Source of the DNA: Victivallales bacterium
Lineage (GTDB): Bacteria; Verrucomicrobiota; Lentisphaeria; Victivallales; GWF2-50-93
Length of the DNA: 39,164 nt
NCBI GenBank assembly: GCA_041662825.1
Contig: JBAZRS010000001.1
Span: forward strand, 1 to 39,164
Reading direction: 5' to 3'
Position numbers and translations under genes: made by a program. The notes below the pieces were generated by a model. That model ran no database searches. It was given only the letters and a program-made list of their open reading frames with translations, and had not been told where the DNA came from. This document shows, piece by piece, positions 1,125 to 39,106 of this stretch (within the stretch, counting starts at the first letter, position 1; every line of letters begins with the position of its first letter).

Positions 1125-1125
1125 A

Positions 1126-2580: not shown

Positions 2581-2583
2581 ACG

Positions 2584-5184: not shown

Positions 5185-5230
5185 CGGTATAATTATGCAA
5201 ACAAAACAGACATATTCTAAGGAGGGCAAG

Positions 5231-5590: not shown

Positions 5591-5600
5591 GGGGGATGCC

Positions 5601-6407: not shown

Positions 6408-6409
6408 CT

Positions 6410-7240
6410 ATGAGAACACGAATTTCAATAGCGATTGCGGCGTTATTTCTGTTTATATCGACTGAGGCGCTGGCGCTGCCGTTTGCAAGGGTAGGCATAC
6501 GACCCGAGACAGCCACCCAGCGGAATAGAATTATCGCAGACGGGGGCACCATCATTGATCTGAATTTTACAAATACCTTTATTCGCAGAACGAAAGAGCT
6601 TGGTATCTACACCTCCTGCAAGTTTTTAGGCGATGCTAATATGGCCTACAAACAAGGAGCCACAGGGGTTACTACATTCTACGACAAATCGGGGACTGGC
6701 AATGATTTAGTGCAGGGTACGGCGATTAATCAACCCACCTGGACGGCGGGTCAGCAAAACGGAAGGGCCGGGATAGTTTTTGATGGTTCAAGATGGGTAG
6801 CAAAGACCCTTGTTGCTGCCGTGGATATGCCGTTTACGATAATTTCCGTATCGAAAGTAACAACATTTGAGGATTACGGCATTGTATATGCGGCTACTGG
6901 TTCCGCTGGCCCCCAATTATTTTCGTTCGTCGCGCCCTCATTGTCTCTAAGCGATGGCTCCACAGTAGCCACTGGCATCACAACGACTCAATATGATTTA
7001 ATCACCACAGAATGGAACGGGGCTACATCGAAACTGGCTGTTAATGGAGCGGCATACAGCAATGTAAATGTTGGCACCAATCACAGTTCGGCCACTGCAT
7101 TGTCTATTGGAGCATATACAACGCCCGCTTATGGACTAAAAGGAGGCGTGACATCACTGTTTCTTTTTAGCGGCTCCCTTACTACGGCTCAAAAAGTTGC
7201 AATGGAAAATTTGGTAAATTCTTACTACCAAATATATTAG
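6410..7240 (+). CDS. LamG/concanavalin-like domain protein with signal peptide (receptor-binding candidate)
   Basis: AGGAGG RBS before the ATG at 6410. N-terminus MRTRISIAIAALFLFISTEALA|L. The stretch DKSGTGNDLVQGTAINQPTWT..NGRAGIVFDGS is typical of Laminin_G_3-like phage fibre domains. Confidence 0.55.
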   Translation: MRTRISIAIAALFLFISTEALALPFARVGIRPETATQRNRIIADGGTIIDLNFTNTFIRRTKELGIYTSCKFLGDANMAYKQGATGVTTFYDKSGTGNDLVQGTAINQPTWTAGQQNGRAGIVFDGSRWVAKTLVAAVDMPFTIISVSKVTTFEDYGIVYAATGSAGPQLFSFVAPSLSLSDGSTVATGITTTQYDLITTEWNGATSKLAVNGAAYSNVNVGTNHSSATALSIGAYTTPAYGLKGGVTSLFLFSGSLTTAQKVAMENLVNSYYQIY

Positions 7241-7247
7241 GAGTATT

Positions 7248-7910
7248 ATGAGGTTACAGGATTTAACAGGTAAACGTTATGGGAGGTTGACCGTAAAAAG
7301 TCGTGATACGAATTGCGGCAAGCATGTCAAATGGGTTTGTCTTTGTGATTGCGGAAATGAAAAAACAATTTTTGCCATGAACCTAAAACGGGGCCTTACA
7401 ACTTCGTGTGGTTGCTTTCGTAAAGAGAATATCCACAACCCCCTTAAACATGGTCTTACCGGTACCCGTATTTACAATATTTATCATGGCATGATTGCCC
7501 GATGTTGCTCAATTCAAGAAAATAATGAGGCATATCCCTATTATCGTGGAAAGGGGATTGAGGTTTGTAACGAATGGCGTTCAGACATTAAAAACTTTTA
7601 TTCATGGGCTATGGCGAATGGCTATGATGAATCTTTGACGATTGACCGGATAGATAATGACGGAAATTATGAGCCATCTAATTGTCGGTGGATACCCATT
7701 GGCGAACAGTCAAAGAATACATCTTCTAATCACAATATCACATTTCAAGATGAAACCATGACTATGAGTGATTGGGCAAGAAAGAAAGGATTAAAAATTA
7801 GTACGTTTTGTGCGCGGTTAAAAAAGGGATGGAGCAAGGAAGAAGCTCTGACAATACCCTTACTAAATCATTCTCAAAGTGGATTGGGTAGGTACTACGC
7901 GATATATTGA
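7248..7910 (+). CDS. HNH_3/AP2-like homing-endonuclease-type protein
   Basis: N-terminus RYGRLTV....W.C.CDCGNE....L..G...SCGC. Also YRGKGIEVCNEW...F..WA..NGY and SLTIDRIDNDGNYEPSNCRW. It is visibly more AT-rich than the flanking genes. Confidence 0.6.
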   Translation: MRLQDLTGKRYGRLTVKSRDTNCGKHVKWVCLCDCGNEKTIFAMNLKRGLTTSCGCFRKENIHNPLKHGLTGTRIYNIYHGMIARCCSIQENNEAYPYYRGKGIEVCNEWRSDIKNFYSWAMANGYDESLTIDRIDNDGNYEPSNCRWIPIGEQSKNTSSNHNITFQDETMTMSDWARKKGLKISTFCARLKKGWSKEEALTIPLLNHSQSGLGRYYAIY

Positions 7911-7943: not shown

Positions 7944-8213
7944 ATGGCAAACGGCGACAGCTTCAAAGACTTTAACAACTTCAAGCGGGTACTGATGGGC
8001 GTGGTTGTCCTCATCGTCGTGGGTTGGTTAGGCTGGGTTTCCCTGTGTGCTGTTGCCGCCGATAGGGAGGTGGCGGTGCTTAAATCAACCATCACGTACA
8101 TCAAGCAAGACGTTCAGGAATTAAAAACGGACACGAAATCAGTTTTCGGGCTTGTAACGGCGATAAGAGACGACCAAATCCGCCGGGAGCGAAGAGAGAA
8201 CAGGCGCAGATGA
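7944..8213 (+). CDS. N-terminally anchored membrane protein with coiled coil (holin or i-spanin candidate)
   Basis: AAGGAG RBS. One TM segment (VLMGVVVLIVVGWLGWVSLCAV), then a helical region with an Arg-rich tail. It lies directly upstream of the endolysin. Confidence 0.5.
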   Translation: MANGDSFKDFNNFKRVLMGVVVLIVVGWLGWVSLCAVAADREVAVLKSTITYIKQDVQELKTDTKSVFGLVTAIRDDQIRRERRENRRR

Positions 8214-8320
8214 AAACAATCAATCACATTTTCGCTTTTATCTTTTTGGGAATCGGGATGGCCTTTGCTTACGCAGCCATGGGGTTTACCTATATCGGCC
8301 AATGCTTCACGGAGGAATAA
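8210..8320 (+). CDS. 36-aa hydrophobic peptide (lysis-cassette membrane protein candidate)
   Basis: Not in the ORF track because it is under 60 aa. Its ATG overlaps the previous stop (ATGA) and its stop abuts the endolysin ATG at 8321. Sequence: MKTINHIFAFIFLGIGMAFAYAAMGFTYIGQCFTEE. Confidence 0.4.
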   Translation: MKTINHIFAFIFLGIGMAFAYAAMGFTYIGQCFTEE

Positions 8321-8803
8321 ATGCCGAGCAGGAAAATGAAAACATCCGATCTGAAAAAATTGCTCTATTCTACCTTCGGGGATCTTCGCGACGATCAATT
8401 ATTGGGCCTTGTGGACTATGGAGAATCCAGGGGGGAGCCGCGAGAAGGCCAGATAGCCGTCGGCACCGTTATTCTTGAGCGCGTCGATCACCGGGATTGG
8501 GACGGCAAAACGATCAAGGAGGTCTGCCTTTTGCCTTATCAGTTTTCATGCCTGCTGCCCGACGATCCGAATTTCAAACAGCTAGCCCTGATCGCTTCGG
8601 GCTTCGAGGCGGCTCTGATGAAATCATCGGTTTTGACGGGATGCCATGAAATTGCAAAGGGCCTGCTTGACGGCACGATTCCGAGGAATCCACTTTTGGC
8701 AGAACATCACTGCATGCAATACAAAGTGGTAGGCTGCAAGGCTGCATGGGCAGATAAGATGCGACTGATTTTAATAATCGGTCACCACGAGTTTTATGTG
8801 TGA
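8321..8803 (+). CDS. endolysin, SleB-like cell-wall hydrolase (Hydrolase_2 type)
   Basis: The motif GESRGEPREGQIAVGTVILERV....WDGKTIKEVCLLPYQFSC matches the SleB/Hydrolase_2 signature (GE.RGE...G..AV..VI.NR...P.QFS). Confidence 0.8.
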   Translation: MPSRKMKTSDLKKLLYSTFGDLRDDQLLGLVDYGESRGEPREGQIAVGTVILERVDHRDWDGKTIKEVCLLPYQFSCLLPDDPNFKQLALIASGFEAALMKSSVLTGCHEIAKGLLDGTIPRNPLLAEHHCMQYKVVGCKAAWADKMRLILIIGHHEFYV

Positions 8804-8824
8804 TCCGATAGAAAGGAGGGCACT

Positions 8825-9001
8825 ATGTTAAACTGGAAAACAACCCTATTCGGGTTTTTGGCTGCGTTGCCGCAGCTCATCAATTTTATCACTCCGGCAA
8901 TTCCTGAGCCGTGGGGCGGATTGGCCTCAAGCATTGCGATCATTATCGCGTTCTATTTCGCAAAAGACAAGGAAGTGAAAAGCGCAACGGTTGGGCAGTA
9001 A
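8825..9001 (+). CDS. 58-aa two-TM membrane protein, holin candidate
   Basis: Strong RBS AAGGAGGG. Sequence MLNWKTTLFGFLAALPQLINFITPAIPEPWGGLASSIAIIIAFYFAKDKEVKSATVGQ has two hydrophobic segments and a charged C-tail. It is under 60 aa and so absent from the ORF track. Confidence 0.55.
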   Translation: MLNWKTTLFGFLAALPQLINFITPAIPEPWGGLASSIAIIIAFYFAKDKEVKSATVGQ

Positions 9002-9020
9002 ATAGCCAAAGATAAATACG

Positions 9021-9049
9021 TTGACACGAATAACAAATCATGATAGTCT
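9021..9049 (+). promoter_or_regulatory. sigma70-like promoter candidate upstream of the HNH gene
   Basis: TTGACA (9021-9026), a 17-nt spacer ending in TGa (extended -10), then TAGTCT (9044-9049). It lies in the 71-nt gap before the ATG at 9073. Confidence 0.35.
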
Positions 9050-9072
9050 CTGTCTGTCGTTAGGAGGCTATC

Positions 9073-9756
9073 ATGAAAAAATGCTTGCTTTGCGGTGAAG
9101 AAAAGCCATTAAATCGGTATGATATGCACAAAATGGGTAAACTTGGTCGGAACCCTCATTGTAAGGATTGCCGGAAAAAGGCTGCCCACGATAGGTATTT
9201 AATCAACCGAGAGGCAATCCTCCGGCAATCAAGGGATTATTATTTCGCAAACCGAGATACTTGCAACAGGCGACACTTGGATTATTACAAAGACAACAAA
9301 GAACGACTGTTGCGATTAAGTATGGATAAATATTACGCGAACTGGGAATCTGAGCGCAAGCGGAGAGATGAATCGACTCGGAGAAATTGGGACAATGTTC
9401 TAAAATATCAACGAGAGTGGAAAGCAGAAAGACGAGCCACGGATTATTCATACAGGGTTCATCAAAATATCTCACGCCGGCTGAGGGACAGCATTAAAAA
9501 GGGGGCAAAAAGACGGGTGACGTGGGAAAAGATGCTTGGATATTCAACAGAGAACTTAATGAAGCATCTTGAGTCTCGATTTACACATGGCATGTCTTGG
9601 GAGAATTATGGGGAGTGGCACATCGACCACAAAATCCCCATAGTCCATTTCAAATTATGCGGCGCTAACGATGAGGAGATGATTTCAAAGTGCTGGTGCC
9701 TCAATAATCTCCAGCCATTGTGGGCAAGGGATAATTTAATAAAGGGGGACCGGTAA
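9073..9756 (+). CDS. HNH endonuclease
   Basis: N-terminal CLLCG....CKDC zinc-ribbon-like motif. The C-terminal WHIDHKIPIVHF......NLQPLWARDNLIKG is an HNH signature. GGAGG RBS. AT-rich relative to neighbours. Confidence 0.75.
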   Translation: MKKCLLCGEEKPLNRYDMHKMGKLGRNPHCKDCRKKAAHDRYLINREAILRQSRDYYFANRDTCNRRHLDYYKDNKERLLRLSMDKYYANWESERKRRDESTRRNWDNVLKYQREWKAERRATDYSYRVHQNISRRLRDSIKKGAKRRVTWEKMLGYSTENLMKHLESRFTHGMSWENYGEWHIDHKIPIVHFKLCGANDEEMISKCWCLNNLQPLWARDNLIKGDR

Positions 9757-9760
9757 AGCA

Positions 9761-9922
9761 ATGAACCCAATTATGATGAAAATCCTGCTGGCCCTGGTGA
9801 TCGAATTATTGAAGCTGCTTAAAAGATATTATGACAACATGACCCCAGGGCAGCGGGAGGCATGGCAAAAAGCCATCAAAGACGTTCAAGACCCAATGGC
9901 CGGGAACCTGGAAGGGCCGTGA
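9761..9922 (+). CDS. 53-aa small protein with N-terminal hydrophobic helix
   Basis: Short ORF found by hand: MNPIMMKILLALVIELLKLLKRYYDNMTPGQREAWQKAIKDVQDPMAGNLEGP. The RBS is weak. Confidence 0.35.
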   Translation: MNPIMMKILLALVIELLKLLKRYYDNMTPGQREAWQKAIKDVQDPMAGNLEGP

Positions 9923-9934
9923 AGGAAGGGAACT

Positions 9935-10111
9935 ATGCTGAAAGACATCATCGAATCTTGCGGGAACGATAAGAACCTTGTTATTCTTGCCCTTGTCGCC
10001 GTGGCGATTTATTCACTTTATACCATGGGGCAATCAGCCGAAAATATCATTACGGCGGTCGTTTCCGGACTCTGCGGAATTGCAACCGGCAGGGCGACGG
10101 CGAAGCCATAG
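9935..10111 (+). CDS. 58-aa small membrane protein
   Basis: AGGAAGG RBS. Sequence MLKDIIESCGNDKNLVILALVAVAIYSLYTMGQSAENIITAVVSGLCGIATGRATAKP has two hydrophobic segments. Confidence 0.45.
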   Translation: MLKDIIESCGNDKNLVILALVAVAIYSLYTMGQSAENIITAVVSGLCGIATGRATAKP

Positions 10112-10115
10112 GATG

Positions 10116-10220
10116 TCAGCGCAGGATTCCGATTTTAATATCTTCTGCGAATATCCAGAAAAATACAACAACCAGCGCGAAAAGAAAGAAGAAAATAGCA
10201 ATGGAATGATACTCTTTCAT
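10116..10220 (-). CDS. 34-aa hydrophobic peptide, convergent with the preceding ORFs
   Basis: Minus-strand sequence MKEYHSIAIFFFLFALVVVFFWIFAEDIKIGILR, with GAGGGG upstream of the ATG. It is very short, so speculative. Confidence 0.3.
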   Translation of the reverse strand: MKEYHSIAIFFFLFALVVVFFWIFAEDIKIGILR

Positions 10221-10314
10221 CGGCAAATACCCCTCACGATCTCCCCTTGCCCACCCACTGCAAGTTAAACGGAATAGAACATCTTGAAATCTTAGCGGAA
10301 TTGCCCGAAGCTCA

Positions 10315-10355
10315 TGATTACGAATCAGTTGCTCTACCGGCTGAGCTACATCGGC
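10315..10355 (-). other. 5' fragment (positions 1-41) of a tRNA-Thr(CGU)-like sequence; putative attP core
   Basis: The minus strand reads GCCGATG TA GCTC AGCCGGTA GAGC A ACTGA TTCGTAA TCA. This gives an acceptor 5' strand, a complete D arm, the anticodon stem 5' strand and a loop with CGT at positions 34-36. Downstream there is no matching anticodon-stem 3' strand, T arm or CATCGGC acceptor strand. Confidence 0.7.
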
Positions 10356-11428
10356 TTGTTAATAATTCCGCCACCTTGAACCACTTTGATTTTTGGTTTT
10401 TGCTCACTACGGTCACTACGGCTAACCAAATTTAATCCATTTACCGCCCTTCGCATGGTGTTCATCGAGACCGCCGCGTAAATCTGCGTTGTCGAAATAG
10501 ATTTATGCCCCAGAAGTTTCTGAATGATCCTGATATCCGCCCCGGATTCAAGTAAATGTGTTGCAAAACTGTGTCTTATCATGTGGGGAGTGATCCTTTT
10601 GTCTATTCCGGCCCGGGACATGGCTGTCAATAAGGGTTTCCTCACATCCGTCAGCGGCTTCCCTGTCTTTCTTGACGGGAACAGCCATTTACCATCCTGA
10701 TTGATTCCGGTCAAGATTCTTTTCAAATCCTTTACTATGGGCACAAGTCTTTCCTTTGAACCCTTCCCCTTCACTTTCAGGCAGGATTGATCCTGGGCCA
10801 AATCTGACGGCCTGAGGTGAGTAACTTCATCCCTCCTGAGGCCGCAATAATACATTGTGGCATAGAGCGCCCTTGAAACGCCGGTCATATTATTTAAGAT
10901 AATTGCAATCTCGTCTCGAGACAGCACCGAGGGGAGGGCTTTCCGATACGGCAACGGCTCCCATTTCTCAGGCGGGGAGCAAAAACTCTGCTTCGCGCCC
11001 CATTTTATCATGTGTGTGAGGCACAGGATTTCAAGGTTTACGGCCCGGCTGCATGTCGGCCTTTCGGTCGTGTCCATCCTTTTCTTTTTATACGCGGTTA
11101 TCAGGCTGTTTGAAATCGCATCCGGCTGCATGTTGCCAAAAAACAAGAGAAGATGATTATTCAGCATCATCTTTTTATTTTTCAGGGTCGTCGGACTCTG
11201 CTGCATTTCTACCCATAATAAATAGTCCGTGGCGATTTCATCACAGGTTTTTGACTGAGACTGGACAGGCTTGCGGTAGGTTTTCCGAAGGCTGCGCTCT
11301 TGAGCAAGCGCCTCCTGCCGGGAACCGCAATAGGTGATCTGGTGCCGTCCGCTTTTCCGGCCGGTTTCATAGAAATCAATAATATGCTTTTTCGCATTTA
11401 CAGAACGGACAGACATTAAACACCACAA
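10346..11428 (-). CDS. int: tyrosine recombinase / phage integrase
   Basis: The C-terminal catalytic region has ...GLRRDEV..L..., HMIRHSFATHLLESGADIRIIQKLLGHKSISTTQIYAAV (the R..HxxR..Y pattern) and an N-terminal SAM-like domain. The start may be 11416 rather than 11428. The TAG stop lies inside the tRNA fragment. Confidence 0.95.
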   Translation of the reverse strand: MWCLMSVRSVNAKKHIIDFYETGRKSGRHQITYCGSRQEALAQERSLRKTYRKPVQSQSKTCDEIATDYLLWVEMQQSPTTLKNKKMMLNNHLLLFFGNMQPDAISNSLITAYKKKRMDTTERPTCSRAVNLEILCLTHMIKWGAKQSFCSPPEKWEPLPYRKALPSVLSRDEIAIILNNMTGVSRALYATMYYCGLRRDEVTHLRPSDLAQDQSCLKVKGKGSKERLVPIVKDLKRILTGINQDGKWLFPSRKTGKPLTDVRKPLLTAMSRAGIDKRITPHMIRHSFATHLLESGADIRIIQKLLGHKSISTTQIYAAVSMNTMRRAVNGLNLVSRSDRSEQKPKIKVVQGGGIINKPM

Positions 11429-11540
11429 ATAATTGAGACCGCTTCCACAACGTCAGGATGCGCGCATATTGCAGTTACGATTGATCGGCGGAAATAGACT
11501 ACTTTGCCGCCTTGTTTTGTGCGACGAGGGCTGGCGGCAC

Positions 11541-11891
11541 TTACGCCCCGCCGCTTTTTCTTCGCTCGACCGCCCCACCCGTCAAACGGGCGATTTTTTC
11601 CTTTGCTTCTGCAAGTTCTCTTTCACAAGCAACCAGGTTTTTCGTCAACAATTCGATGTGAGCAAGCGCGATCTTCATTCGTGGGTCGTCACCTCCTTTA
11701 TTTGTAATTTTATAATCAATTATGGGCTCGCCAAAATAACGAGAAAATTTATTGAGGGTACTATTTTTTATTTCAATATCTCCAAGCAAAACATTTTGAA
11801 CGGTTCCTAATGACACGCCAACACGCCGCGCAAGCTCACGACGGGACACGCCTTTTTCAATTTCTTTCTCAACCAATGTCCGGATATTCAT
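11541..11891 (-). CDS. cI-like repressor (XRE-type HTH with C-terminal coiled coil)
   Basis: The HTH is SRRELARRVGVSLGTVQNVLLG. It is divergent from a Cro-like gene and lies upstream of int on the same strand. Confidence 0.8.
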   Translation of the reverse strand: MNIRTLVEKEIEKGVSRRELARRVGVSLGTVQNVLLGDIEIKNSTLNKFSRYFGEPIIDYKITNKGGDDPRMKIALAHIELLTKNLVACERELAEAKEKIARLTGGAVERRKSGGA

Positions 11892-11897
11892 TTTTAT

Positions 11898-11925
11898 ATA
11901 TTACCCCGTAAATAGTTCTTGACAA
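11898..11925 (-). promoter_or_regulatory. PRM-like promoter candidate giving a leaderless repressor mRNA
   Basis: The minus strand reads TTGTCA (11925-11920), a 16-nt spacer, then TAATAT (11903-11898), followed by 6 nt and the ATG at 11891. There is no Shine-Dalgarno sequence. Confidence 0.35.
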
Positions 11926-11947
11926 GTGCATATTATTATGGTAGACG
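11919..11947 (+). promoter_or_regulatory. PR-like promoter candidate for the Cro-like operon
   Basis: TTGACA (11919-11924), a 17-nt spacer ending in TGg, then TAGACG (11942-11947). This is the same architecture as the promoter candidate at 9021. Confidence 0.4.
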
Positions 11948-11974
11948 ATAGTCAACCTAATGAGAGGATCGCAA

Positions 11975-12211
11975 ATGCAAAGACGTTTTAATCCAGAATC
12001 AATCAAAATTATCAGGGAAGCGCGTAACCTGAGCCGTGAGGAATTTGCGGCAATGTTAGGCGGCGACACATCCCGACAACTTATCCACGCATGGGAAACA
12101 GGAAAATATAAACCCTCCGTTGAATCATTGGCATCAATCGTAAACGCCCTAAGCCTAAAATCTGTGGACATTTTTTTTACCAACAGTGACCATCAAGATA
12201 GTAGACATTAG
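11975..12211 (+). CDS. Cro-like XRE-family HTH regulator
   Basis: The HTH is LSREEFAAMLGGDTSRQLIHAWETGKYKPSVESLASIVNAL. GAGAGGA lies 6 nt before the ATG at 11975; the ATG at 11960 in the ORF track has no RBS. Confidence 0.75.
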   Translation: MQRRFNPESIKIIREARNLSREEFAAMLGGDTSRQLIHAWETGKYKPSVESLASIVNALSLKSVDIFFTNSDHQDSRH

Positions 12212-12220
12212 GAGGCCACC

Positions 12221-12427
12221 GTGCCAAAAGAACCTACTGAAAATATCAGCGTCACCATGCCAATCAACCTTCTGCAAATCCTGGATCATTTCTGCTGTGA
12301 GTGCGACCTTAACCGCTCCCAGGCCATTGCAAGGGCGGTCAGGCTTTATGTCGGAACCAAAATAGCCAAGACTCCCGCCTTTTGGGATCGTGAATACCAC
12401 AGGCTTCAAGAAGAAGGCAAAATATAA
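12221..12427 (+). CDS. ribbon-helix-helix (CopG/Arc-like) DNA-binding protein
   Basis: GTG start 5 nt after AGGAGG. The pattern ISVTMPINLLQILDHFCCECDLNRSQAIARAVRLYV fits a beta-strand, helix, helix RHH fold. Confidence 0.6.
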   Translation: MPKEPTENISVTMPINLLQILDHFCCECDLNRSQAIARAVRLYVGTKIAKTPAFWDREYHRLQEEGKI

Positions 12428-12451
12428 CTCAGGTAAAAAATTATAAAAATT

Positions 12452-12761: not shown

Positions 12762-13001
12762 ATGACAAAACGTGAACTTGATTTTCTGGAAAAATGCTTT
12801 GCACGCCAGCTTGAAGGATACCTTTTTCAATCAAAAAGCAAACTGGCAGACAAACTCGAAGCGGAAGGATTTATTTGCAAGGAATCAAAATATTTTGGCC
12901 GGGATCGTTTCGGCGCAATCGTTTGCCATGGCTACGCCCTGACCTACAAAGGAAATTTTGCATATTGCAATAGTGAAAGATGCCATGAACCCCTACCTTA
13001 A
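12762..13001 (+). CDS. hypothetical early protein (79 aa)
   Basis: ORF in the co-oriented early operon, starting 3 nt after the previous stop. No motif recognised. Confidence 0.5.
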   Translation: MTKRELDFLEKCFARQLEGYLFQSKSKLADKLEAEGFICKESKYFGRDRFGAIVCHGYALTYKGNFAYCNSERCHEPLP

Positions 13002-13383
13002 ATCATCCCTGCGCTGGCTGTCTCTCGCCGCAATCGTGACGGTGCTGTGGCTACTTTACGGGTGCGCCTCAGTGGTAGCGCCCCGCCCATATCATGTCAC
13101 GGCGAAAGTTACGACAGAGGTTCATATTGTAACCGACAGGGCGGGCTTTTCAATTCCTGAATACAGGGATTCCAATCCAAGAAATCAGAGTCGCAACATT
13201 GCCGGTTACGCCGACATGAGGGAAGGCGTCTGTCATATCTATGTTTTGGGGTACGAATACAAGGGGCGCATTTATCCGATGACAGCGGAAATCTTAGGCC
13301 ATGAATTTCAGCACTGCCTGAATATGGTCAACCCCGCCGTGCTTGATCCAGACACAGATTACAAATGGTGGATGGGAAGGTAA
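12985..13383 (+). CDS. small lipoprotein with HExxH zincin motif
   Basis: Sequence MNPYLKSSLRWLSLAAIVTVLWLLYG|C has a lipobox-like LYGC. ILGHEFQHCLN lies near the C-terminus. The internal Met at 12985 was chosen because the signal sequence begins there. Confidence 0.5.
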   Translation: MNPYLKSSLRWLSLAAIVTVLWLLYGCASVVAPRPYHVTAKVTTEVHIVTDRAGFSIPEYRDSNPRNQSRNIAGYADMREGVCHIYVLGYEYKGRIYPMTAEILGHEFQHCLNMVNPAVLDPDTDYKWWMGR

Positions 13384-22171: not shown

Positions 22172-22918
22172 ATGGCAGAAGGTAGGATGTTGTCAAAACG
22201 CGTGACGCGATCCGGTAAGGTTTCTGCTTTGTCGTCGGACACGGCCCGGATGATTTATTCCTGGCTCATCCCATATACGGATGTTGAGGGGAGGATGGAG
22301 GCCGATCCGAGGCTCTTAAAAGCTGACATTGCCCCCCTTTTGGATCACATTACACCGGCAGTTATCAACAGCGTGCTTCAGGAGCTTCATAAAATAGGCT
22401 TGGTTATCCTTTATTCAACACCCGACGACACAAAACAATATCTACAAATTACTAAGTTTGAGGACAATCAGAAGAATTTACGCAAGGATAGAGAAGCCCC
22501 GTCACGAATACCAAAACCGACGGCGGCGCAACTCCGGCAGAAGTCCGGCGCAACTCCGGCAGAAGTCCCCCCTAATATAAGAGAAGATAAGTTAAGTTTA
22601 AGAGAAGATAATAAAGGGCCTGCCGAAGAGCCTTTTAATTTACCATCAAAAGAAGAAATCCAGGAATCATCGGATCCAAAAATAGAAGAACACATCCAGC
22701 AGGTATGTGACAGGCTCTATAAGGAGAAGATATTCCCGGAAGTCCATGCTTTCAAAAACAAGATGTTAAAAGGCAACAAGAACGGGCGCGGTGTGTTGCA
22801 TGTTTTGACGCGGTGTTACATGGCAAAGCCGGAAGATCCCTGGGGATATTGCCAGAAGATAATCTCAATCGAGGATGGGAACTATAATGAAAGAGATTAC
22901 AGAAAAACTGCACAGTAA
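22172..22918 (+). CDS. replisome-organizer / replication-initiator-like protein
   Basis: The N-terminal GRMLSKRVTRSGKVSALSSDTARMIYSWLIPYTDVEGRMEADPRLLKADIAP resembles the Phage_rep_org_N pattern (RRMFSK....S..F..L....Q.LY..L....DD.G....P..I...I). The central low-complexity linker contains DNA repeats. Confidence 0.45.
   Translation: MAEGRMLSKRVTRSGKVSALSSDTARMIYSWLIPYTDVEGRMEADPRLLKADIAPLLDHITPAVINSVLQELHKIGLVILYSTPDDTKQYLQITKFEDNQKNLRKDREAPSRIPKPTAAQLRQKSGATPAEVPPNIREDKLSLREDNKGPAEEPFNLPSKEEIQESSDPKIEEHIQQVCDRLYKEKIFPEVHAFKNKMLKGNKNGRGVLHVLTRCYMAKPEDPWGYCQKIISIEDGNYNERDYRKTAQ
22525..22568. repeat. perfect 22-bp tandem direct repeat (2 copies)
   Basis: GGCGCAACTCCGGCAGAAGTCC occupies 22525-22546 and again 22547-22568. 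The copies are read in two different frames (AQLRQKS and GATPAEV). Confidence 0.95.
22578..22611. repeat. two 13-nt direct repeats in an AT-rich stretch
   Basis: TAAGAGAAGATAA occurs at 22578-22590 and 22599-22611, a 21-nt periodicity, immediately after the 22-bp repeats. Confidence 0.9.
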
Positions 22919-23378
22919 GGTTATGGCTGATTTTAAGCCGACGATTGAACAAATGGCAAATGAGGGCTGTTCACAAGATCAAATTGTGGGTGTTTATCAG
23001 GCGTACATGAGAACGAGGGTAAATCGTTATTATCAGAAGAGTAATTTTTTAAAAGCATTTCGGGATTGTTATAGTCCAGATGACTTAAAAAAAACAGACA
23101 GTAAAATTGAAACGCTTTTTTATATGCAGCTTCAAAATGCGGTAATTGATTTCAAGTTTCAGGTTGTTATTGGACCGTATCGGGTTGATTATCTTATTGG
23201 GGGGTTTTTGATTATTGAGATTGATGGGCCACAGCACAAAAAAAACCATGACGAAAGGCGGGATAAATATCTCAGGAAGATGGGATATAAGATTATCCGA
23301 ATACCGACGTGGATATTGGTGTCGTGCCCGGACGCTGCCATTCAGGAAATCAAAGAGGCTGCGAAAAATGGAAAATGA
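22887..23378 (+). CDS. DUF559 / Vsr-like (PD-(D/E)XK) endonuclease-domain protein
   Basis: C-terminal sequence ETLFYMQLQ....FKFQVVIGPYRVDYLI..FLIIEIDGPQH.....D..RDKYLRKMGYKIIRIP matches the DUF559 signature. AT-rich. The start is set at 22887. Confidence 0.7.
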   Translation: MKEITEKLHSKVMADFKPTIEQMANEGCSQDQIVGVYQAYMRTRVNRYYQKSNFLKAFRDCYSPDDLKKTDSKIETLFYMQLQNAVIDFKFQVVIGPYRVDYLIGGFLIIEIDGPQHKKNHDERRDKYLRKMGYKIIRIPTWILVSCPDAAIQEIKEAAKNGK

Positions 23379-28560: not shown

Positions 28561-28839
28561 ATGGACAAAAGGGATTGGCTTGATATGGTTCCGTGGGTAG
28601 CTATTGTTGTGCTGGCGATTTTGTTAGGCGCGCTGAATAGCCATTTCGACAAGCGCGTAACAATGCTGGAACGAGACATGATGTTCGCAGTAAATGAACG
28701 GCAGACTTCGCCTCGCCACAATCCATGCTTTGAATCTGTGTGGTTTTTGGCTCACAAGGAAGAAATGAAAAAAAACAAAATGATTAAAGTTGTTGATTCC
28801 GGCTGTGGATATCTTGTTTATGAGGTAGCTCATCCATGA
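28561..28839 (+). CDS. small membrane protein (alternative start 28555)
   Basis: One TM segment (MVPWVAIVVLAILLGAL), preceded by GGGAGGG. Confidence 0.45.
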   Translation: MDKRDWLDMVPWVAIVVLAILLGALNSHFDKRVTMLERDMMFAVNERQTSPRHNPCFESVWFLAHKEEMKKNKMIKVVDSGCGYLVYEVAHP

Positions 28840-30746
28840 AGCGCCTTTTCCTCATATTGTTGCTTTTGTGGCCTCTTTCGGTCAGCGCCGAGGTCATAAC
28901 CGGCAATCCCCTGCCTACGCTTTACACGCCGCCGCCTTCCTTCACGGCTCCGAACGTGAGCGTATGCGAGATCGTCAACGGATGCACCGGGCAGACCACG
29001 GCACAGGCCGCCATTGACGCCTTATCTCAGGTTTCAACCGCAACGAATGAGTACGTTTTGACGAAGGACGCCACGACCGGGCAGGCGAAATGGAAGGCCA
29101 CAGCCTCAACGATGGTTTACCCTGGGGCCGGTATTGCGCTTTCAACAGGTGCGGCATGGGGAGCGTCGATCACAGACGCATCGGCAAACTGGAACACGGC
29201 CTATACGGATCGTTTAAAATGGGATGGTGGGGCAACCGGCCTTGTGGCGGCTACGGCCCGGACATCGCTCGGCAGCGGGCTTTCTGCTGGTTCCGTGCTG
29301 GTTACAAACACCATAAACACACTGACCGAGCTAAATTCCACCGTCGGCACGACCTATCTCAAAAACGCAGCCGGGACGATCTCATGGGCGGCAGGAACCA
29401 CGACACCGGGGGGCAACGACACAGAGGTTCAGTTCAATGACGGGGGCACGCTGGCCGGGGATACTACTTTCGTATGGAATAAAACCACCAACACACTGAC
29501 GCTGCAAACCGCACCCACTAATAGTGAGCCGCTTATTGCCGGATATGAAGGCTATGATATGCTTGGCGGTTCAGTAGGAACAAACCTATCACCATCTACG
29601 TCAGTTAAACCATCAGTAAGATTTGAAAAATTCACATCTGCCAATCTTATCGGAGGCGCAACTTATCAGGGCGGCGCGTTGGTAGCCACAACATTTAAAA
29701 CAGGAGGCACTGCTTATGTTGCTTCTATTTTTGGATATGCACTTTTAGGCGACGGCACCGGCGACACAGTAGGAGTCGCAGCGGGAGCGATTAACAACTT
29801 AGCAGCAGCCGGTAATGTTTGGGGGCTGTGGGCCTATGCAGTGTCAACGAGTGCCACAAATGCAAAAACTGTGGGAATCGAGACAAATACGTTTGCCTTT
29901 GCCGACAATGGTCACATGGCTACATACGCCGCCGGATGTCACGTTGGACTTTTGATTTCCAATTATACAAATCACGGTACGTGGGGAATAGACATAACGA
30001 AAGGCTCTGGCGCAACCGGCAAGCAATGGCATACAGGGATTATAATTGAAACAGATTCAATCGTACCACTGAGCGGAACCGTTAATGAGGCTATCCTGAT
30101 TCAAGGCGGGAGTGCCGCAGCTACTCGTTACGGCGGGATCATAATGAATAGCGGGACGTTTGAGTATGGATTAGATTTTAATGGAGGAACCTATAACGCA
30201 GCCCCGATAAGGATTCCGAACAATACTGTATTAAAGGCTCGGAACGCAGCCGGAGCAGCCGACATTAGCCTTATCGGACTTGGTGCGGATAATGTTCTTT
30301 ATATGTACGGAACCGCATTTGGGCTTACCAGCGCGGGGGCGATTACAGCGGCAACATGGCAGGGCGTGGCTGTTGCAACGGGCTATGGCGGCACCGGCGC
30401 GGCAAACGCAGCGGACGCCAGAACAAACCTCGGCCTTGCGATTGGTACAAATGTGCAAGCGTACAATTCAAACCTGACCGCAATCGATCAGGCATTAGAT
30501 ACAACCGCCTCACCTACGTTTGCCGACCTTACGCTTACGGGTCATTTACACATGCCGAACGTTCAGGCAATTTGGATGAAAGATGCGGGCGGGACGCTTA
30601 GAAACACGATGTATTTATTAAACGATGCGGCCCCAAGCAGCCTCTTGATAGGAGCTGGTGCTTCACAGGTTTGTATTTATATCGGCGGGACGGCATATAA
30701 GGTTTCCATCGATGGATCGGGATTTTTGAAAGGTGCGGCTTTATGA
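28836..30746 (+). CDS. large fibre/spike-like protein with N-terminal signal peptide (636 aa)
   Basis: N-terminus MKRLFLILLLLWPLSVSA|E. It is G/A/T/S-rich and beta-type in composition. The stretch YGGTGAANAADARTNLGLAIGTNVQAYNSNLTAI is a classic tail-fibre motif. Confidence 0.6.
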   Translation: MKRLFLILLLLWPLSVSAEVITGNPLPTLYTPPPSFTAPNVSVCEIVNGCTGQTTAQAAIDALSQVSTATNEYVLTKDATTGQAKWKATASTMVYPGAGIALSTGAAWGASITDASANWNTAYTDRLKWDGGATGLVAATARTSLGSGLSAGSVLVTNTINTLTELNSTVGTTYLKNAAGTISWAAGTTTPGGNDTEVQFNDGGTLAGDTTFVWNKTTNTLTLQTAPTNSEPLIAGYEGYDMLGGSVGTNLSPSTSVKPSVRFEKFTSANLIGGATYQGGALVATTFKTGGTAYVASIFGYALLGDGTGDTVGVAAGAINNLAAAGNVWGLWAYAVSTSATNAKTVGIETNTFAFADNGHMATYAAGCHVGLLISNYTNHGTWGIDITKGSGATGKQWHTGIIIETDSIVPLSGTVNEAILIQGGSAAATRYGGIIMNSGTFEYGLDFNGGTYNAAPIRIPNNTVLKARNAAGAADISLIGLGADNVLYMYGTAFGLTSAGAITAATWQGVAVATGYGGTGAANAADARTNLGLAIGTNVQAYNSNLTAIDQALDTTASPTFADLTLTGHLHMPNVQAIWMKDAGGTLRNTMYLLNDAAPSSLLIGAGASQVCIYIGGTAYKVSIDGSGFLKGAAL

Positions 30747-35282: not shown

Positions 35283-35948
35283 ATGGCAAGTGTTGAAGGA
35301 AACATCAAACCGACGGGCTTAAGCCAGCGGTTACTGGTGACATTGCTTTATATGATCGTCTATTCGATTCAGGGGATCTGTCAAAAACTGGACGACGATG
35401 CGACAGTGCCCCTGACGACCTATGAAGCCAATGTTTATACGGCCATTTTCAACGGCTACATCGAAGATGTCCGGGGCAATACCATCATGAATCGGGTGTC
35501 GACGGCGGATGACAGGTTTTTCATCCTGACGCCGAACGGGGTAACGCCAAAAGCAATTTTGGAATGCCTCTATCAGATATTCGACATGATGGAAACCTTA
35601 ACGGAGCAGCTCGACACCGACGGGATCACGACCAGCACCTATGAGGCGCTTTGCTACACGGCGCTGTATGTCTGGATCGTGGAAAACGTCAAGGGAAACC
35701 AGCTCGGAAACGGGACGGCTTATTACTTCCGGCCCGGCGGGGAAACCGACCAGAAACAGCTTGTCGATCTTCTCTATGCGATCGTTGACAGCATAGAGAC
35801 CCTCACGGAGAAGCTGGACACGGACGCCGGAACGACGCCCCCGACCGATACGGATTACGAGGCGCTCTGGTTTACCGCAACAATCCTGATGAGGGTTCAG
35901 AGCTCAGCCGGGAATGTTGTCGGAAACGACATTACAATCACACCTTAA
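35283..35948 (+). CDS. internally triplicated protein (three ~70-aa repeats)
   Basis: The repeats are LLVTLLYMIVYSIQGICQKLDDDATVPLTTYEANVYTA, ILECLYQIFDMMETLTEQLDTDGITTSTYEALCYTA and LVDLLYAIVDSIETLTEKLDTDAGTTPPTDTDYEALWFTA. Confidence 0.6.
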   Translation: MASVEGNIKPTGLSQRLLVTLLYMIVYSIQGICQKLDDDATVPLTTYEANVYTAIFNGYIEDVRGNTIMNRVSTADDRFFILTPNGVTPKAILECLYQIFDMMETLTEQLDTDGITTSTYEALCYTALYVWIVENVKGNQLGNGTAYYFRPGGETDQKQLVDLLYAIVDSIETLTEKLDTDAGTTPPTDTDYEALWFTATILMRVQSSAGNVVGNDITITP

Positions 35949-35960
35949 AGGAGGAGTAAA

Positions 35961-36887
35961 ATGAAGAAAAGATTTTTGACAATTTTGACAGCCCTCATGC
36001 TGGCCTTCGCGTTTGTGCTTCCTGCATTCGCGGCGGAACAGGACATGTGGGCCTACGTGTATAAATGGGAAGGCGGGATCAATGCAGACGGAACGCTGGC
36101 CCTGACCAGGATCGAAAGCGGGATCACATTCAAGGTTCTGGCAATCGATTCCGACACGGCGGAAACCCTGACCTATTACAAGGGTTCAACTTCGCTCACC
36201 AACCCGGTAACAACCACGAGTTTTAATTCTGCAACGATTTGCAATGACATGGTGGCCTTCCGGGTAGATCCGACGGACTCCACCAACGACAGATATGTTG
36301 ACCTGATCGTGGTGGATACCAACGGCGGCTACACAAAATTCATCGAAAACTTCGACAAGTATCAGCACACCATTGTTATCGACGAAAGGCCGAACACGCT
36401 CCAGCAGGGTACCATCTGGTTTTCCTGCACGACAGCATATCCGAAAACGTTTGCGGCCGAAACCACGACCGGCGTTTCATTCCTGGCCGACACATTCATT
36501 CAGGATGTCAGAGTGGAAATCGTGACCACCACGTCAGGAACCACAATGGCCGTCGGTCTGCTTGACGTCGATCAGGACGGCCTGAGGTTCAACGTCTTGC
36601 AGACCACCGCAGGATACATTGCCGACACCGGAGTTATTACGTCCGGAGTCTGTCTGGATTACACAGCGGCGTCAAATTATGGAGATTTGCTTTACACGAA
36701 GATTACGGGCGCAAATTCGCTCTGGAACAGCACGAACTCCCTCGGTGGCAGGTCCTATAAAGGCCACGTCGTGACAAGCTCCAATTCGGGCACGATCACC
36801 TATTCGTGTTCGAGTACGGCAGGTGCGACGACAGCCGATCCAAACCCGGCGGGGTACATTCATTATTGGTTCAACCGGATCAGATAA
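35961..36887 (+). CDS. secreted beta-rich protein with signal peptide (308 aa)
   Basis: Strong AAGGAGGAG RBS. N-terminus MKKRFLTILTALMLAFAFVLPAFA|A. The mature part is T/S/G-rich. Confidence 0.6.
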   Translation: MKKRFLTILTALMLAFAFVLPAFAAEQDMWAYVYKWEGGINADGTLALTRIESGITFKVLAIDSDTAETLTYYKGSTSLTNPVTTTSFNSATICNDMVAFRVDPTDSTNDRYVDLIVVDTNGGYTKFIENFDKYQHTIVIDERPNTLQQGTIWFSCTTAYPKTFAAETTTGVSFLADTFIQDVRVEIVTTTSGTTMAVGLLDVDQDGLRFNVLQTTAGYIADTGVITSGVCLDYTAASNYGDLLYTKITGANSLWNSTNSLGGRSYKGHVVTSSNSGTITYSCSSTAGATTADPNPAGYIHYWFNRIR

Positions 36888-36906
36888 TGAATCAACTTTA
36901 AACACG

Positions 36907-36932
36907 GGGCAGGGGCCTGGGAACCCCTGCCC
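36907..36932 (+). other. strong 9-bp GC hairpin between the secreted-protein gene and the Wzy_C-like gene
   Basis: GGGCAGGGG (36907-15), an 8-nt loop, then CCCCTGCCC (36924-32). It is followed by ACTTAAAAA with no T-run. Confidence 0.5.
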
Positions 36933-36954
36933 ACTTAAAAACGGGAGATTGAGC

Positions 36955-38211
36955 ATGAAAGAAAAAGAACTGACATATAATTTTCAGGAATGGACCGTTC
37001 CGGCGCTGTTTTTGATCCTGCCCTTCGTTATTCTCGTTCCGGGTATGATCTGGACAAGCCACCACCTGTTTTTTATCCTCATGGTGCTGCCCATCATTGC
37101 GCTGTCGATCAAAAATTTATGGGTGCGTTCATTCCTGCTATACGCTTTTCTGTACCAGATCACGCTGCTTGTTTTCGCAATCAAGTATCCATTGATTAAC
37201 GCCGGAAGTGGATTGTCTGTCATATCGTCATTGATTGCGGCGGCCCTCGTTTACAAGCTGGTCTCGGAAAGCCGCATCCAATCAGAAAAATGGTTTTCCA
37301 TTATCCGCATTGCCGTGATTCTACAAGTCGTTATCTCTATTTCTCAATATCTCGGCTTCAATCCGATTACCTTTGTTATGAGCAATCTGATTTCGACAAA
37401 AGAGGGAATGCCGGGGGATTTCGTCGGCACCATCGGGAACCGAAATTATCTCATGGCGTTCGCCGCTATGTCCATCCCGCTTTTCATCGGATGGAAGTCA
37501 ATCCACTGGAAAATCGAAAAGCCCCTCGGAGTGGACGGTTGCTATCCCTGGAATATCAGGATCAACATTTCATTGATCGTTATCTTCATCGTTTTGTGTC
37601 TTGCGCCTTCTCCGGCTACGCTCGCCGCCGTGATCGGGCTTGCGGTCTATTTCAACCGGGGCTGGAAGTGGATTGTCATTTCGGCCTGCATAGCATTGGC
37701 CTATGTGTACGGATACGTCATTTTCAAAGGTGCCCACCTTACCGATTTTGAAAGATTGCCGGACCAATTAAACCAGATATGGAACACCGGGAAGGTATTG
37801 ATTCCGTTCAACGGCGCGCTTTATCCGGCGGAATATATACCGAATTGGTACGACATCGGCAGGTTCTCAATGTGGCTGACCGCATTGAGCAAGCTGATTA
37901 CGTCATGGTCCGCCATGGTCTTCGGTTTCGGCCCGGGCGCGTTTTGGGGAAAAGCTTATAATCTGCACAGCGAATACATGGCCGCATGGTTTTATTTCGG
38001 CCTGATCGGGCTTTCCGTCATGATCGGCTACATCTACACCACCATCAGGTTTTTAATCAAAAAAAAGGACATGATTCTGTTGTCGGCCTTCGTCATTCTC
38101 TGTCTGGACATGGGCGCAAACCACACGCTGCATATAGCGACAACGGCGTTTCTGGCCGTCATTATCTGCGGATTGATCGAAAGAGAAAGGTTGATCTATG
38201 GCAAACTATAA
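36955..38211 (+). CDS. polytopic membrane protein, O-antigen ligase / polymerase (Wzy_C) family-like
   Basis: Roughly ten hydrophobic segments. Sequence FVGTIGNRNYLMAFAAMSIPL, followed by a large loop and then FGFGPGAFWGKAYNLHSEYMAAWFYFGLIGL, resembles the Wzy_C signature (G.G.G.F.....HN.YL....E.G..G). GGGAGA RBS before the ATG at 36955. Confidence 0.65.
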   Translation: MKEKELTYNFQEWTVPALFLILPFVILVPGMIWTSHHLFFILMVLPIIALSIKNLWVRSFLLYAFLYQITLLVFAIKYPLINAGSGLSVISSLIAAALVYKLVSESRIQSEKWFSIIRIAVILQVVISISQYLGFNPITFVMSNLISTKEGMPGDFVGTIGNRNYLMAFAAMSIPLFIGWKSIHWKIEKPLGVDGCYPWNIRINISLIVIFIVLCLAPSPATLAAVIGLAVYFNRGWKWIVISACIALAYVYGYVIFKGAHLTDFERLPDQLNQIWNTGKVLIPFNGALYPAEYIPNWYDIGRFSMWLTALSKLITSWSAMVFGFGPGAFWGKAYNLHSEYMAAWFYFGLIGLSVMIGYIYTTIRFLIKKKDMILLSAFVILCLDMGANHTLHIATTAFLAVIICGLIERERLIYGKL

Positions 38212-39106
38212 GAGCTTTGAAGAGATTTACAACGCGGTCATGCTGGCGATAGGCGACCTGAGTTATGGCAGGAAGGAAGAGGTCAAGGCCGTTGTCAACA
38301 TGATCTACCTCAATGAGATTCAGTCCGTCGATGAACTCTACCCGCTTTTCTGGTTGCTCGAAACCGACGACACGAAGAAATCAAAAGACCCGGTAACGGC
38401 AATAACGTCAATCACAAAAGCCACGCCGCCCGTTGTGACTTCCGTGGCTCATGGACTTGTAACCGGTGATCTTGTGACGCTCTATGATTCCGACATGACG
38501 GAAATCAATTATCAGACCTGTCACTTTACGAGGACATCAGCGGACGCGGGCAGCTTGCAAGACCTATCAAAAACCAGCATTGCCGGTCTCGGTTACGCCG
38601 CAGCGGGAACCACGGGGAAGATGCACCACCGGGGAGTGACCCTGACCGCCTGCAAAAGAGTCCTGCTTGCGAACTGGCATGGCTACAGCCCCGGCATGGA
38701 GTTTCTTTCCCCGAAAGAAATAGCCGATCAGACAACGTGGCTTGACGAGTCCACGTCCAGACCTACAAAAATGCTTTACAGAAAGGTCTATACCGCAGCC
38801 GGGGCGGAATACGACTATCTGTTGTGGTTTCAGGCCGCCGACGATGCCTACGATCTGCACCTTTGGTATGAAAAGAATATCGACAGGCTGTCCGCGACGA
38901 CCGATGTTCCTGTCGGGCCGCCACAGGTTGCCGACGCGATTATCGCAGGCGCGATTATGAGGCTTGTAAAAAACGAAGTCCAGGTTGAAAACGCCGTAGT
39001 TTGGCCGAGCGTCTATAAATCAAACCTTGAAGCCATCAAATCCATGAACCGAAAATGGTGGGAGAACATGAAACAAAGCGAAAGGTCAGGTCTGTATTTG
39101 CCATGA
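38198..39106 (+). CDS. structural protein (adaptor or tail-associated candidate) with small beta-barrel insertion
   Basis: Overlaps the Wzy_C-like gene by 14 nt. ITKATPPVVTSVAHGLVTGDLVTLYD is the A.P.VVT...HGL.TGD.V motif common in phage structural proteins. Confidence 0.55.
   Translation: MANYKSFEEIYNAVMLAIGDLSYGRKEEVKAVVNMIYLNEIQSVDELYPLFWLLETDDTKKSKDPVTAITSITKATPPVVTSVAHGLVTGDLVTLYDSDMTEINYQTCHFTRTSADAGSLQDLSKTSIAGLGYAAAGTTGKMHHRGVTLTACKRVLLANWHGYSPGMEFLSPKEIADQTTWLDESTSRPTKMLYRKVYTAAGAEYDYLLWFQAADDAYDLHLWYEKNIDRLSATTDVPVGPPQVADAIIAGAIMRLVKNEVQVENAVVWPSVYKSNLEAIKSMNRKWWENMKQSERSGLYLP

Follow-up and report, generated by a model that had tools for sequence, protein, structure and literature searches.

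A predicted Wzy_C-superfamily membrane protein in a variable cargo slot between the head and tail genes of a temperate podovirus

Introduction

Why would a bacteriophage carry, between the genes for its head and the genes for its tail, a gene whose product resembles the membrane enzymes of bacterial surface polysaccharide assembly? The question is raised by a stretch of 39,164 nucleotides from a Victivallales bacterium (GenBank assembly GCA_041662825.1, contig JBAZRS010000001.1, positions 1 to 39,164 of the forward strand), referred to below as the window, which was taken from a 42.6-kb source contig of which 3.4 kb lie outside it. The window represents the genome of a temperate podovirus in circularly permuted form, and the gene in question is an open reading frame (ORF) at 36955-38211, here called the Wzy-like gene. 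An earlier note, made by a model from the letters and their translations, had assigned its product to the family of WaaL ligases, Wzy polymerases and PglL O-oligosaccharyltransferases and had placed the gene inside a virion morphogenesis operon. Phage Wzy_C proteins act in O-antigen or capsule conversion in Pseudomonas phage D3 (PMC4815439), in Acinetobacter prophages (PMC13228068) and probably in phage VarioGold (PMC9658991). Phage-borne Wzy/WaaL-like enzymes are thus a known route to serotype or capsule conversion, and the present case is a divergent one in an unusual genomic position.

Results

Assignment of the Wzy-like protein to the Wzy_C superfamily

The ORF starts with an ATG at 36955, its stop codon ends at 38211 and the product is 418 amino acids (aa) long. 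Both Wzy_C-type motifs quoted in the earlier note were found in it, at residues 158-176 and 323-353. No similarity was detected when the ORF was searched by tblastn against 50,697 deposited phage genomes, and the window protein did not match the Pfam Wzy_C model (PF04932) even at E ≤ 10. Forty-two homologues were obtained with a word-indexed search, and an exhaustive hidden Markov model (HMM) search, in which family clusters were counted at 50% identity, returned 135 cluster representatives at E < 1e-30, 245 at E < 1e-10 and 1394 at E < 1e-3. The Pfam Wzy_C model was matched by 15/35 family members (best E = 2.4e-9) and by 29/70 homologues (best E = 5.7e-11), O-antigen_lig (PF13425) was matched by one family member, and the Wzy_C-matching members align with the window protein over its full length at 24-53% identity. 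The profile search that had been proposed as a check was accordingly negative for the window protein itself and positive for its homologues. Among the NCBIfam models PEP_O_lig_1 was found in 3 of the 35 family members and nothing else, and the PglL_A domain (PF15864) had zero matches among 70 members at E ≤ 0.01. Judged from these searches the family is large, very divergent and mostly located on uncultured phage contigs. As Pfam Wzy_C fails on the window protein and leaves over half of the family undetected, a profile built from the family would fill a gap in virome annotation.

Among 70 aligned sequences, with a mean column identity of 22%, the invariant columns were R303, G324, H338 and G349 and no others, which leaves R303 and H338 as the sole invariant polar residues of the family. 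In the alignment A3 there was no invariant Arg besides R303, and R163 of the GNRN motif was partly conserved. When the family was aligned with E. coli K-12 WaaL using hhalign, R303 and H338 fell on WaaL R288 and H338 in two runs (E = 0.17 and 0.063), and in the alignment with Wzy-beta of phage D3 (E = 0.004) they fell on the equivalent D3 residues. WaaL depends on R288 and H338 for its function, and PglL has conserved counterparts in R298 and H349 (PMC3643930).

An AlphaFold (AF2) model was made from the family alignment, with a predicted local distance difference test score (pLDDT) of 84.5 and a predicted template modelling score (pTM) of 0.85. In a Foldseek search against the PDB the top match was WaaL (7tpg_B; E = 7.8e-4, probability 1.0, template modelling score (TM-score) 0.45-0.47), followed by the SEDS protein FtsW (E = 0.38), the remainder being noise; the viral Foldseek library gave one weak match, an uncharacterised protein of Arthrobacter phage Faja (E = 7e-3). 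The modelled helices form 12 transmembrane (TM) segments with both termini in the cytoplasm, and the short loops contain 11 Lys and Arg residues on the inner side vs 1 on the outer side. The large periplasmic loop, residues 258-339, holds a GxGPG motif and the catalytic-type Arg and His. The family call that had been made from two motifs was therefore correct, as judged from the homologues, the fold comparison with WaaL as best PDB match, the modelled topology (about 12 TM segments, cytoplasmic ends and a large periplasmic loop near the C-terminal third) and the presence in that loop of R303 and H338, invariant in 70 members. On this sequence and model evidence the window protein is, with high confidence, predicted to be a catalytically intact and very divergent member of the Wzy_C superfamily. 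Ligase, polymerase and O-oligosaccharyltransferase subtypes are not separable by sequence, and the assignment is made at the superfamily level.

A variable cargo slot in related phages

Twenty-two non-redundant related phage loci, numbered with the prefix L, were mapped by tblastn and HMM searches. The gene order in the mapped loci was capsid, g211, g221, g308sp, Wzy-like gene, where g308sp denotes the exported protein encoded directly upstream, and the head-to-tail adaptor gene was often found directly 3' of the Wzy-like gene. When loci were retrieved via g308sp alone, the Wzy-like gene was present in 17 of the 25 evaluable loci and missing from 8. In L045 and L050 the slot was empty, with the adaptor following directly after g308sp, and in L034-L038 and L040 the slot (approximately 8900-10400) contained a small TM protein, a protein labelled lysozyme-like by sequence inspection rather than by a profile test, and further lysis-type genes or small TM proteins. 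In L004 the Wzy-like gene is separated from g308sp by an AP2-domain protein, and downstream of the Wzy-like gene come a small ORF and a Hydrolase_2 endolysin (11200-12444). The head-tail junction is thus a variable cargo slot, and the Wzy-like gene is a common but dispensable accessory gene within it. A role as a core morphogenesis gene was rejected given its absence from 8/25 evaluable relatives, and an obligate pairing with g308sp was rejected for the same loci, in which g308sp is found without the enzyme. Of the earlier placement within a virion morphogenesis operon, the position inside the late operon and the overlap with the adaptor gene stood, and the notion of an integral morphogenesis gene did not.

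Four genes were found between g308sp and the Wzy-like gene in L016 (6747-10001) and in L019/L020 (8953-12189), in the order B12-radical-SAM enzyme, GT2 glycosyltransferase, SAM methyltransferase and second GT2. The best match of the second GT2 was the polyprenyl-phospho-GalNAc synthase PpgS (2.5e-28), followed by AglJ and ArnC. These assignments indicate a phage-borne glycan-tailoring module, and such predicted glycan-building enzymes are the sole recurring functional companions of the Wzy-like gene. In L023 the region from 8954 probably carries the same glycan cassette.

The capsid protein was the best conserved of the three proteins compared (mean pairwise identity 60%), ahead of g308sp (52%) and the Wzy-like protein (35%). 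Quick divergence is typical of serotype-specific Wzy and WaaL proteins. Co-divergence of the Wzy-like protein was weak to moderate (Mantel r = 0.30 with capsid and 0.49 with g308sp). Two homologues that are 48% identical to the window protein, P0004 (L053) and P0005, were located among ordinary cellular genes; one of them adjoins RTX-repeat-like and MotA/TolQ-like genes, as labelled by sequence inspection, and around the other lie GDSL lipases, a short-chain dehydrogenase and a metallo-beta-lactamase-fold gene. An identity of 48% in a non-phage context indicates recent exchange between phage and cell. Neither the phage gene, lying between head and tail genes, nor the two cellular homologues examined had the context of a lipopolysaccharide (LPS, waa) cluster. 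A scan of GTDB genomes with a narrow back-translated pattern returned one locus.

Position and probable expression of the Wzy-like gene

The 14-nt overlap that had been claimed with the downstream gene was recovered, the nucleotides 38198-38211 being shared with the start of the adaptor gene. In L001 the overlap is 8 nt (called coordinates); tblastn matches of the Wzy-like gene and the adaptor abut or overlap in L009 and L014. A Shine-Dalgarno-like motif precedes the Wzy-like start codon, and a CGGGAG(A/G) motif is likewise found 5' of the start codon in the relatives. In every locus the Wzy-like gene runs in the direction of the late genes, and no sigma-70-like promoter was found upstream of it on the + strand, using a consensus that may not fit the promoter type of the host. 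Given the lack of such a promoter and the overlap with the adaptor gene, late co-transcription is the simplest reading, and the gene is probably co-transcribed with the late genes. The GC content of the Wzy-like gene is 0.48 vs 0.52 in its neighbours. Composition as a sign of recent acquisition was considered and dropped, since the dip is weak and the T-rich skew is that expected of a membrane protein.

The hairpin downstream of g308sp

A 9-bp GC hairpin had been described just upstream of the Wzy-like gene. The stems (36907-36915 and 36924-36932, with loop CCUGGGAA) were confirmed, and the hairpin turned out to belong to the 3' end of g308sp and not to the Wzy-like ORF. In its intergenic context the minimum free energy z-score was -3.0, and 1/200 shuffled sequences folded as well. 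A GC stem-loop was found past the g308sp stop codon in approximately 24/36 distinct related loci, and the stems vary and yet remain complementary (GCGGGGG/CCCCCGC, GGAGGGGA/TCCCCTCC, GGCAGGAGG/CCTCCTGCC and others), that is, they covary. The loop often reads NGGGA(G/A)N, and a T-rich run is frequently found 3' of the hairpin, followed by the GGGAG ribosome-binding site. In the window no T-run follows the hairpin, so the terminator scan did not report it. The hairpin is kept where a radical-SAM gene or the adaptor comes next (L023, L045), and there is none where the next gene abuts the g308sp stop codon. A regulatory element of the Wzy-like gene was rejected as an explanation, given that the hairpin also lies past the g308sp stop codon ahead of other genes; its presence in loci without the Wzy-like gene identifies it as a 3' element of g308sp. 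Most likely it acts as a partial terminator, or stabilises the mRNA, and so sets the ratio of head-gene to downstream expression, and the shared NGGGA(G/A)N loop suggests an element recognised by a protein or by the ribosome rather than a plain terminator. A conserved TAAC[C/T]TTTAAC-like sequence was also observed directly past the g308sp stop codon, at 36888-36906 in the window and in the same place in the relatives.

The exported neighbour g308sp and other signal-peptide proteins

The N-terminus of g308sp (MKKRFLTILTALMLAFAFVLPAFA|AEQ) is a Sec-type signal peptide with an AxA site. This gene had been described earlier as encoding a signal-peptide protein, and the signal peptide was indeed kept in 12/12 homologues examined, with drifting sequence. 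More than 304 homologues of g308sp were found, and a tblastn search of deposited phages with g308sp gave no similarity. The AF2 model of g308sp had a pLDDT of 81, with low confidence for a conserved 44-residue segment (223-266), and the best local fold match was a capsid chain of cyanophage Pam1 (7eel_H, probability 1.0, TMt 0.56). The protein looks like a capsid decoration protein and yet carries a signal for export. In the window its C-terminal part contains an S/T/A/P-rich stretch, SSTAGATTADPNPAG. A Ser/Thr-rich feature dependent on the enzyme was looked for in g308sp and none was found, the C-terminal Ser/Thr content being equal with and without the enzyme.

At least five Sec-exported late ORFs had been proposed, in agreement with five signal-peptide-like N-termini that were recognised by eye and by a simple heuristic; these ORFs include ones with PHROG matches to tail collar fibre and virion structural protein. 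In the same way, large signal-peptide-like proteins were recognised after the adaptor in L034 (11256-13886), L045 (9793-12975) and L050 (9706-12222). The presence of g308sp and other signal-peptide proteins among late genes is a more unexpected observation than the Wzy-like gene. A 221-aa protein encoded upstream of g308sp (35283-35948) consists in part of three internal repeats of about 65 aa (LLYMIV..I.GIC.KLD.D...TYEA..YTA); it is 46-66% identical in all relatives and has no family match.

Other features of the window

The genes of the window were named from PHROG and Pfam scans, and the features are collected in Table 1. The phage belongs to a lineage of temperate podoviruses in which the portal is P22-type, the capsid protein Phage_capsid_3 and the adaptor SU10-like, and the window capsid protein is approximately 30% identical to the capsid proteins of Bcep22-like podoviruses. 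The lysis cassette of the window is located after the tail genes (7944-9001) and consists of a small TM protein (7944-8213), the endolysin and a second small TM protein. Two ORFs have a low GC content (7248-7910 and 22875-23378; 0.38-0.39 vs about 0.50 overall). The former, an HNH endonuclease, is inserted between the tail genes and the lysis cassette and is probably a homing element; AP2/HNH genes also fill the head-tail slot in L004 and L019. In the early region, the ORF at 12958-13383 has a lipoprotein-like N-terminus (…LWLLYG|C) and may encode a surface or exclusion lipoprotein of the prophage.

Table 1. Coordinates of features in the window and the basis on which each was called.
Feature	Position	Strand	Basis or remark
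Predicted Wzy_C-superfamily (WaaL/Wzy/PglL-like) 12-TM membrane protein, 418 aa	36955..38211	+	ORF, family alignments, Pfam in homologues, AF2 model
Predicted large periplasmic loop, residues 258-339, 82 aa, TM9-TM10	37726..37971	+	AF2 helices; Lys and Arg bias
R303 codon	37861..37863	+	Invariant in 70 diverse members; aligns with E. coli WaaL R288
H338 codon	37966..37968	+	Invariant; aligns with E. coli WaaL H338 (PglL H349)
GGGAG Shine-Dalgarno-like motif	36943..36947	+	7 nt 5' of the Wzy-like ATG; from sequence
Head-to-tail adaptor gene	38198..39106	+	Weak SU10_adaptor match; syntenic homologues 40-59% identical
g308sp, exported beta-sandwich/jelly-roll protein, 308 aa	35961..36887	+	Last head-module gene; always directly upstream of the slot
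GC hairpin, 9-bp stem, 8-nt loop	36907..36932	+	20 nt past the stop codon of g308sp
Signal-peptide-like late ORFs	~5231-5590, 5601-6407, ~6407-7240, 28836-30746, 35961-36887		By eye and heuristic
Tail and fibre-like genes	228-7240		PHROG/Pfam scans
HNH endonuclease	7248-7910		PHROG 374, E = 3e-66
Endolysin, Hydrolase_2, with small TM proteins on either side (lysis cassette)	8321-8803		
Tyrosine integrase	10346-11428	-	
Terminase large subunit	24333		PHROG/Pfam scans
P22-type portal	26532		PHROG/Pfam scans
Scaffold-like protein	32097		Inferred from position and composition; no profile match
Major capsid protein, Phage_capsid_3	33318		PHROG/Pfam scans

Discussion

Proposed function

We consider it moderately probable that the Wzy-like protein remodels the surface polysaccharide of the host by periplasmic transfer of a lipid-linked glycan. 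Beyond the fold, topology, conserved residues, synteny and slot variability described above, the steps that we infer, from catalysis, donor and acceptor to the timing of expression and the pay-off, would be as follows. The enzyme would reside in the inner membrane and present R303 and H338 in the 82-residue periplasmic loop. There, if WaaL and PglL are a guide, the pair would bind the pyrophosphate of a glycan carried on an undecaprenyl lipid. The glycan would then be transferred to an acceptor, or its repeat units polymerised, at the periplasmic face. The resulting alteration of the O-antigen or a similar surface glycan could change or mask the phage receptor, and the pay-off might be that superinfecting relatives are excluded or that progeny are not lost on cell debris. 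In some relatives the phage would also supply enzymes that alter the donor (two GT2s, a SAM methyltransferase and a B12-radical-SAM enzyme). If expression is late, as its position suggests, the question arises whether some temperate podoviruses remodel the host surface in the late lytic phase rather than in the lysogen.

Several observations weigh against surface remodelling by a Wzy_C enzyme. The window protein alone matches no Pfam, NCBIfam or PHROG model in single-sequence scans, the family profiles (alignments A1 and A3) retrieve nothing from the PDB sequences, neither hhalign E-value against E. coli WaaL (0.17 and 0.063) is significant and the TM-score to WaaL is below 0.5. A counterpart of WaaL R215 (PglL R224) was not identified in the hhalign alignments, which span the R288-H338 segment only. 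No phosphoglycosyl-transferase, flippase, Iap-like inhibitor or acetylase was found beside the gene, with no search made specifically for Iap peptides. PpgS-like GT2 enzymes make polyprenyl-monophosphate sugars, which are normally used by GT-C and not by Wzy_C enzymes. The probable late expression would leave little time for a surface change and fits classical lysogenic conversion poorly.

Alternative explanations

The same biochemistry could serve in a classical lysogenic-conversion gene (moron), driven in the prophage by a promoter of its own and either silent or of no relevance in morphogenesis, with its place in the late operon being accidental. The integrase at 10346-11428 shows that the phage is temperate, so lysogenic conversion is conceivable; moreover, the slot is a cargo hot-spot with unrelated genes in relatives, a terminator-like hairpin lies upstream, the GC content is slightly below that of the neighbours (0.48 vs 0.52) and the lysogen is the presumed place of action of every phage Wzy_C gene characterised so far (PMC9658991, PMC4815439). 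We nevertheless regard this as rather unlikely, considering that no sigma-70-like promoter was seen on the + strand upstream, with the reservation that the host may use another promoter type, that the orientation is that of the late genes in all loci, and that there is no terminator before the overlapping adaptor gene (14 nt; 8 nt in L001), so that a prophage transcript would continue into the tail genes. A role in lysis or exclusion, in which undecaprenyl-linked wall precursors are sequestered or cleaved before lysis or DNA injection is blocked, would be compatible with the probable late expression, with the lysis cassette carried in the slot by several relatives (in L004 a small ORF and the Hydrolase_2 endolysin lie downstream of the gene) and with the second-best fold match, FtsW, a SEDS protein that uses lipid II. 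That match is weak (E = 0.38), however, the lysis cassette of the window sits elsewhere (7944-9001), the GT2, methyltransferase and radical-SAM genes in L016 and L019 indicate glycan building, and an invariant catalytic-type Arg and His would be superfluous in a protein that served exclusion alone, all of which makes such a role very improbable.

The remaining alternative is a PglL/TfpO-like O-oligosaccharyltransferase that glycosylates Ser/Thr residues of exported phage proteins, chiefly g308sp, in the periplasm during the late phase. PglL belongs to the same superfamily and has the same conserved Arg and His, genes for such enzymes commonly adjoin and are co-oriented with the gene of their target (21/31 pglL homologues; PMC3643930), and in VarioGold, an unrelated temperate phage, a 299-aa signal-peptide protein is encoded directly upstream of the O-antigen-ligase-like gene (PMC9658991). 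In the present phages g308sp is directly upstream in almost every locus bearing the Wzy-like gene and its signal peptide is conserved, the two proteins diverge together (Mantel r = 0.49) more strongly than either does with the capsid gene, the five late ORFs with signal-peptide-like N-termini are candidate acceptors and the g308sp of the window has its S/T/A/P-rich C-terminal stretch. Against this, the family contains no PglL_A domain and, among NCBIfam models, PEP_O_lig_1 in 3/35 members and nothing else; g308sp is a core gene that keeps its signal peptide in the 8 evaluable loci without the enzyme, and its C-terminal Ser/Thr content is the same with and without it. A terminator-like hairpin separates the two genes, distant family members occur without g308sp in other phages (L013, L015) and in cells, and a fixed position of the cargo slot could alone account for the linkage. 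We therefore hold an enzyme of this type to be unlikely, and it is less likely again that it O-glycosylates exported virion-like proteins (the decoration-like g308sp and fibre-like proteins) in the periplasm; once glycosylated, these proteins would enter particles, or exert an effect at the cell surface, at lysis or later but not before. To our knowledge, periplasmic glycosylation of structural or accessory proteins of tailed phages has not been described. Of the two functions that had been offered in the earlier note, remodelling of the surface is thus favoured, and PglL-like glycosylation was left without specific support (no PglL_A domain, and g308sp persisting without the enzyme).

Comparison with known systems

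The Gtr systems (GtrA/GtrB/GtrC of P22 and the Shigella Sf phages) resemble the relatives L016 and L019, in which a GtrB/PpgS/ArnC-like GT2 is encoded directly upstream and a lipid-linked sugar would be made and then transferred in the periplasm. They differ in that the transferase here has a predicted Wzy_C fold and not that of GtrC/GT-C, no GtrA-like flippase was seen and no GT2 lies beside the window gene, the rest of the window having been partly screened for GT2. PglL/TfpO (PilO) enzymes share the Wzy_C core with its Arg and His (PglL R298 and H349; PMC3643930) and the placement of the gene directly 3' of, and in the same orientation as, one that encodes an exported protein. Unlike these enzymes, the Wzy-like protein has neither a PglL_A nor a PglL_B signature, the neighbour is a beta-sandwich protein and not a pilin, and g308sp is also present without the enzyme in related phages.

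WaaL of E. coli K-12 and of Cupriavidus metallidurans (7TPG) is the best structural match, with about 420 aa, 12 TM segments and a large periplasmic loop between TM9 and TM10, and its R288 and H338 align with the invariant R303 and H338 (PMC3643930). It differs in showing no significant sequence similarity (hhalign E = 0.06-0.17), and in the TM-score of 0.45-0.47, and no counterpart of R215 was identified in the alignments, which cover the R288-H338 segment; further, the window gene is phage-borne and not in a waa/LPS-core cluster.

Wzy-beta of phage D3 belongs with the proteins of phi297, VarioGold (VG_p25) and Acinetobacter prophages; in biological terms D3 Wzy-beta and VG_p25 are the nearest analogues. 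The D3 gene is located in an accessory region between tail and lysis genes on the strand opposite to them, with iap and an O-acetylase as partners, whereas the window gene points the same way as the late genes and shares nucleotides with the adaptor gene, and no iap or oac was found nearby, with no search specific for Iap peptides. The points in common are these: the proteins are polytopic Wzy_C proteins of temperate phages, D3 Wzy-beta keeps the same register over the segment from Arg to His (remote alignment, E = 0.004), VG_p25 has a signal-peptide protein encoded just upstream (VG_p26, 299 aa; PMC9658991), and the presumed role of the D3-type Wzy proteins is, as proposed here for the window protein, conversion of a surface glycan.

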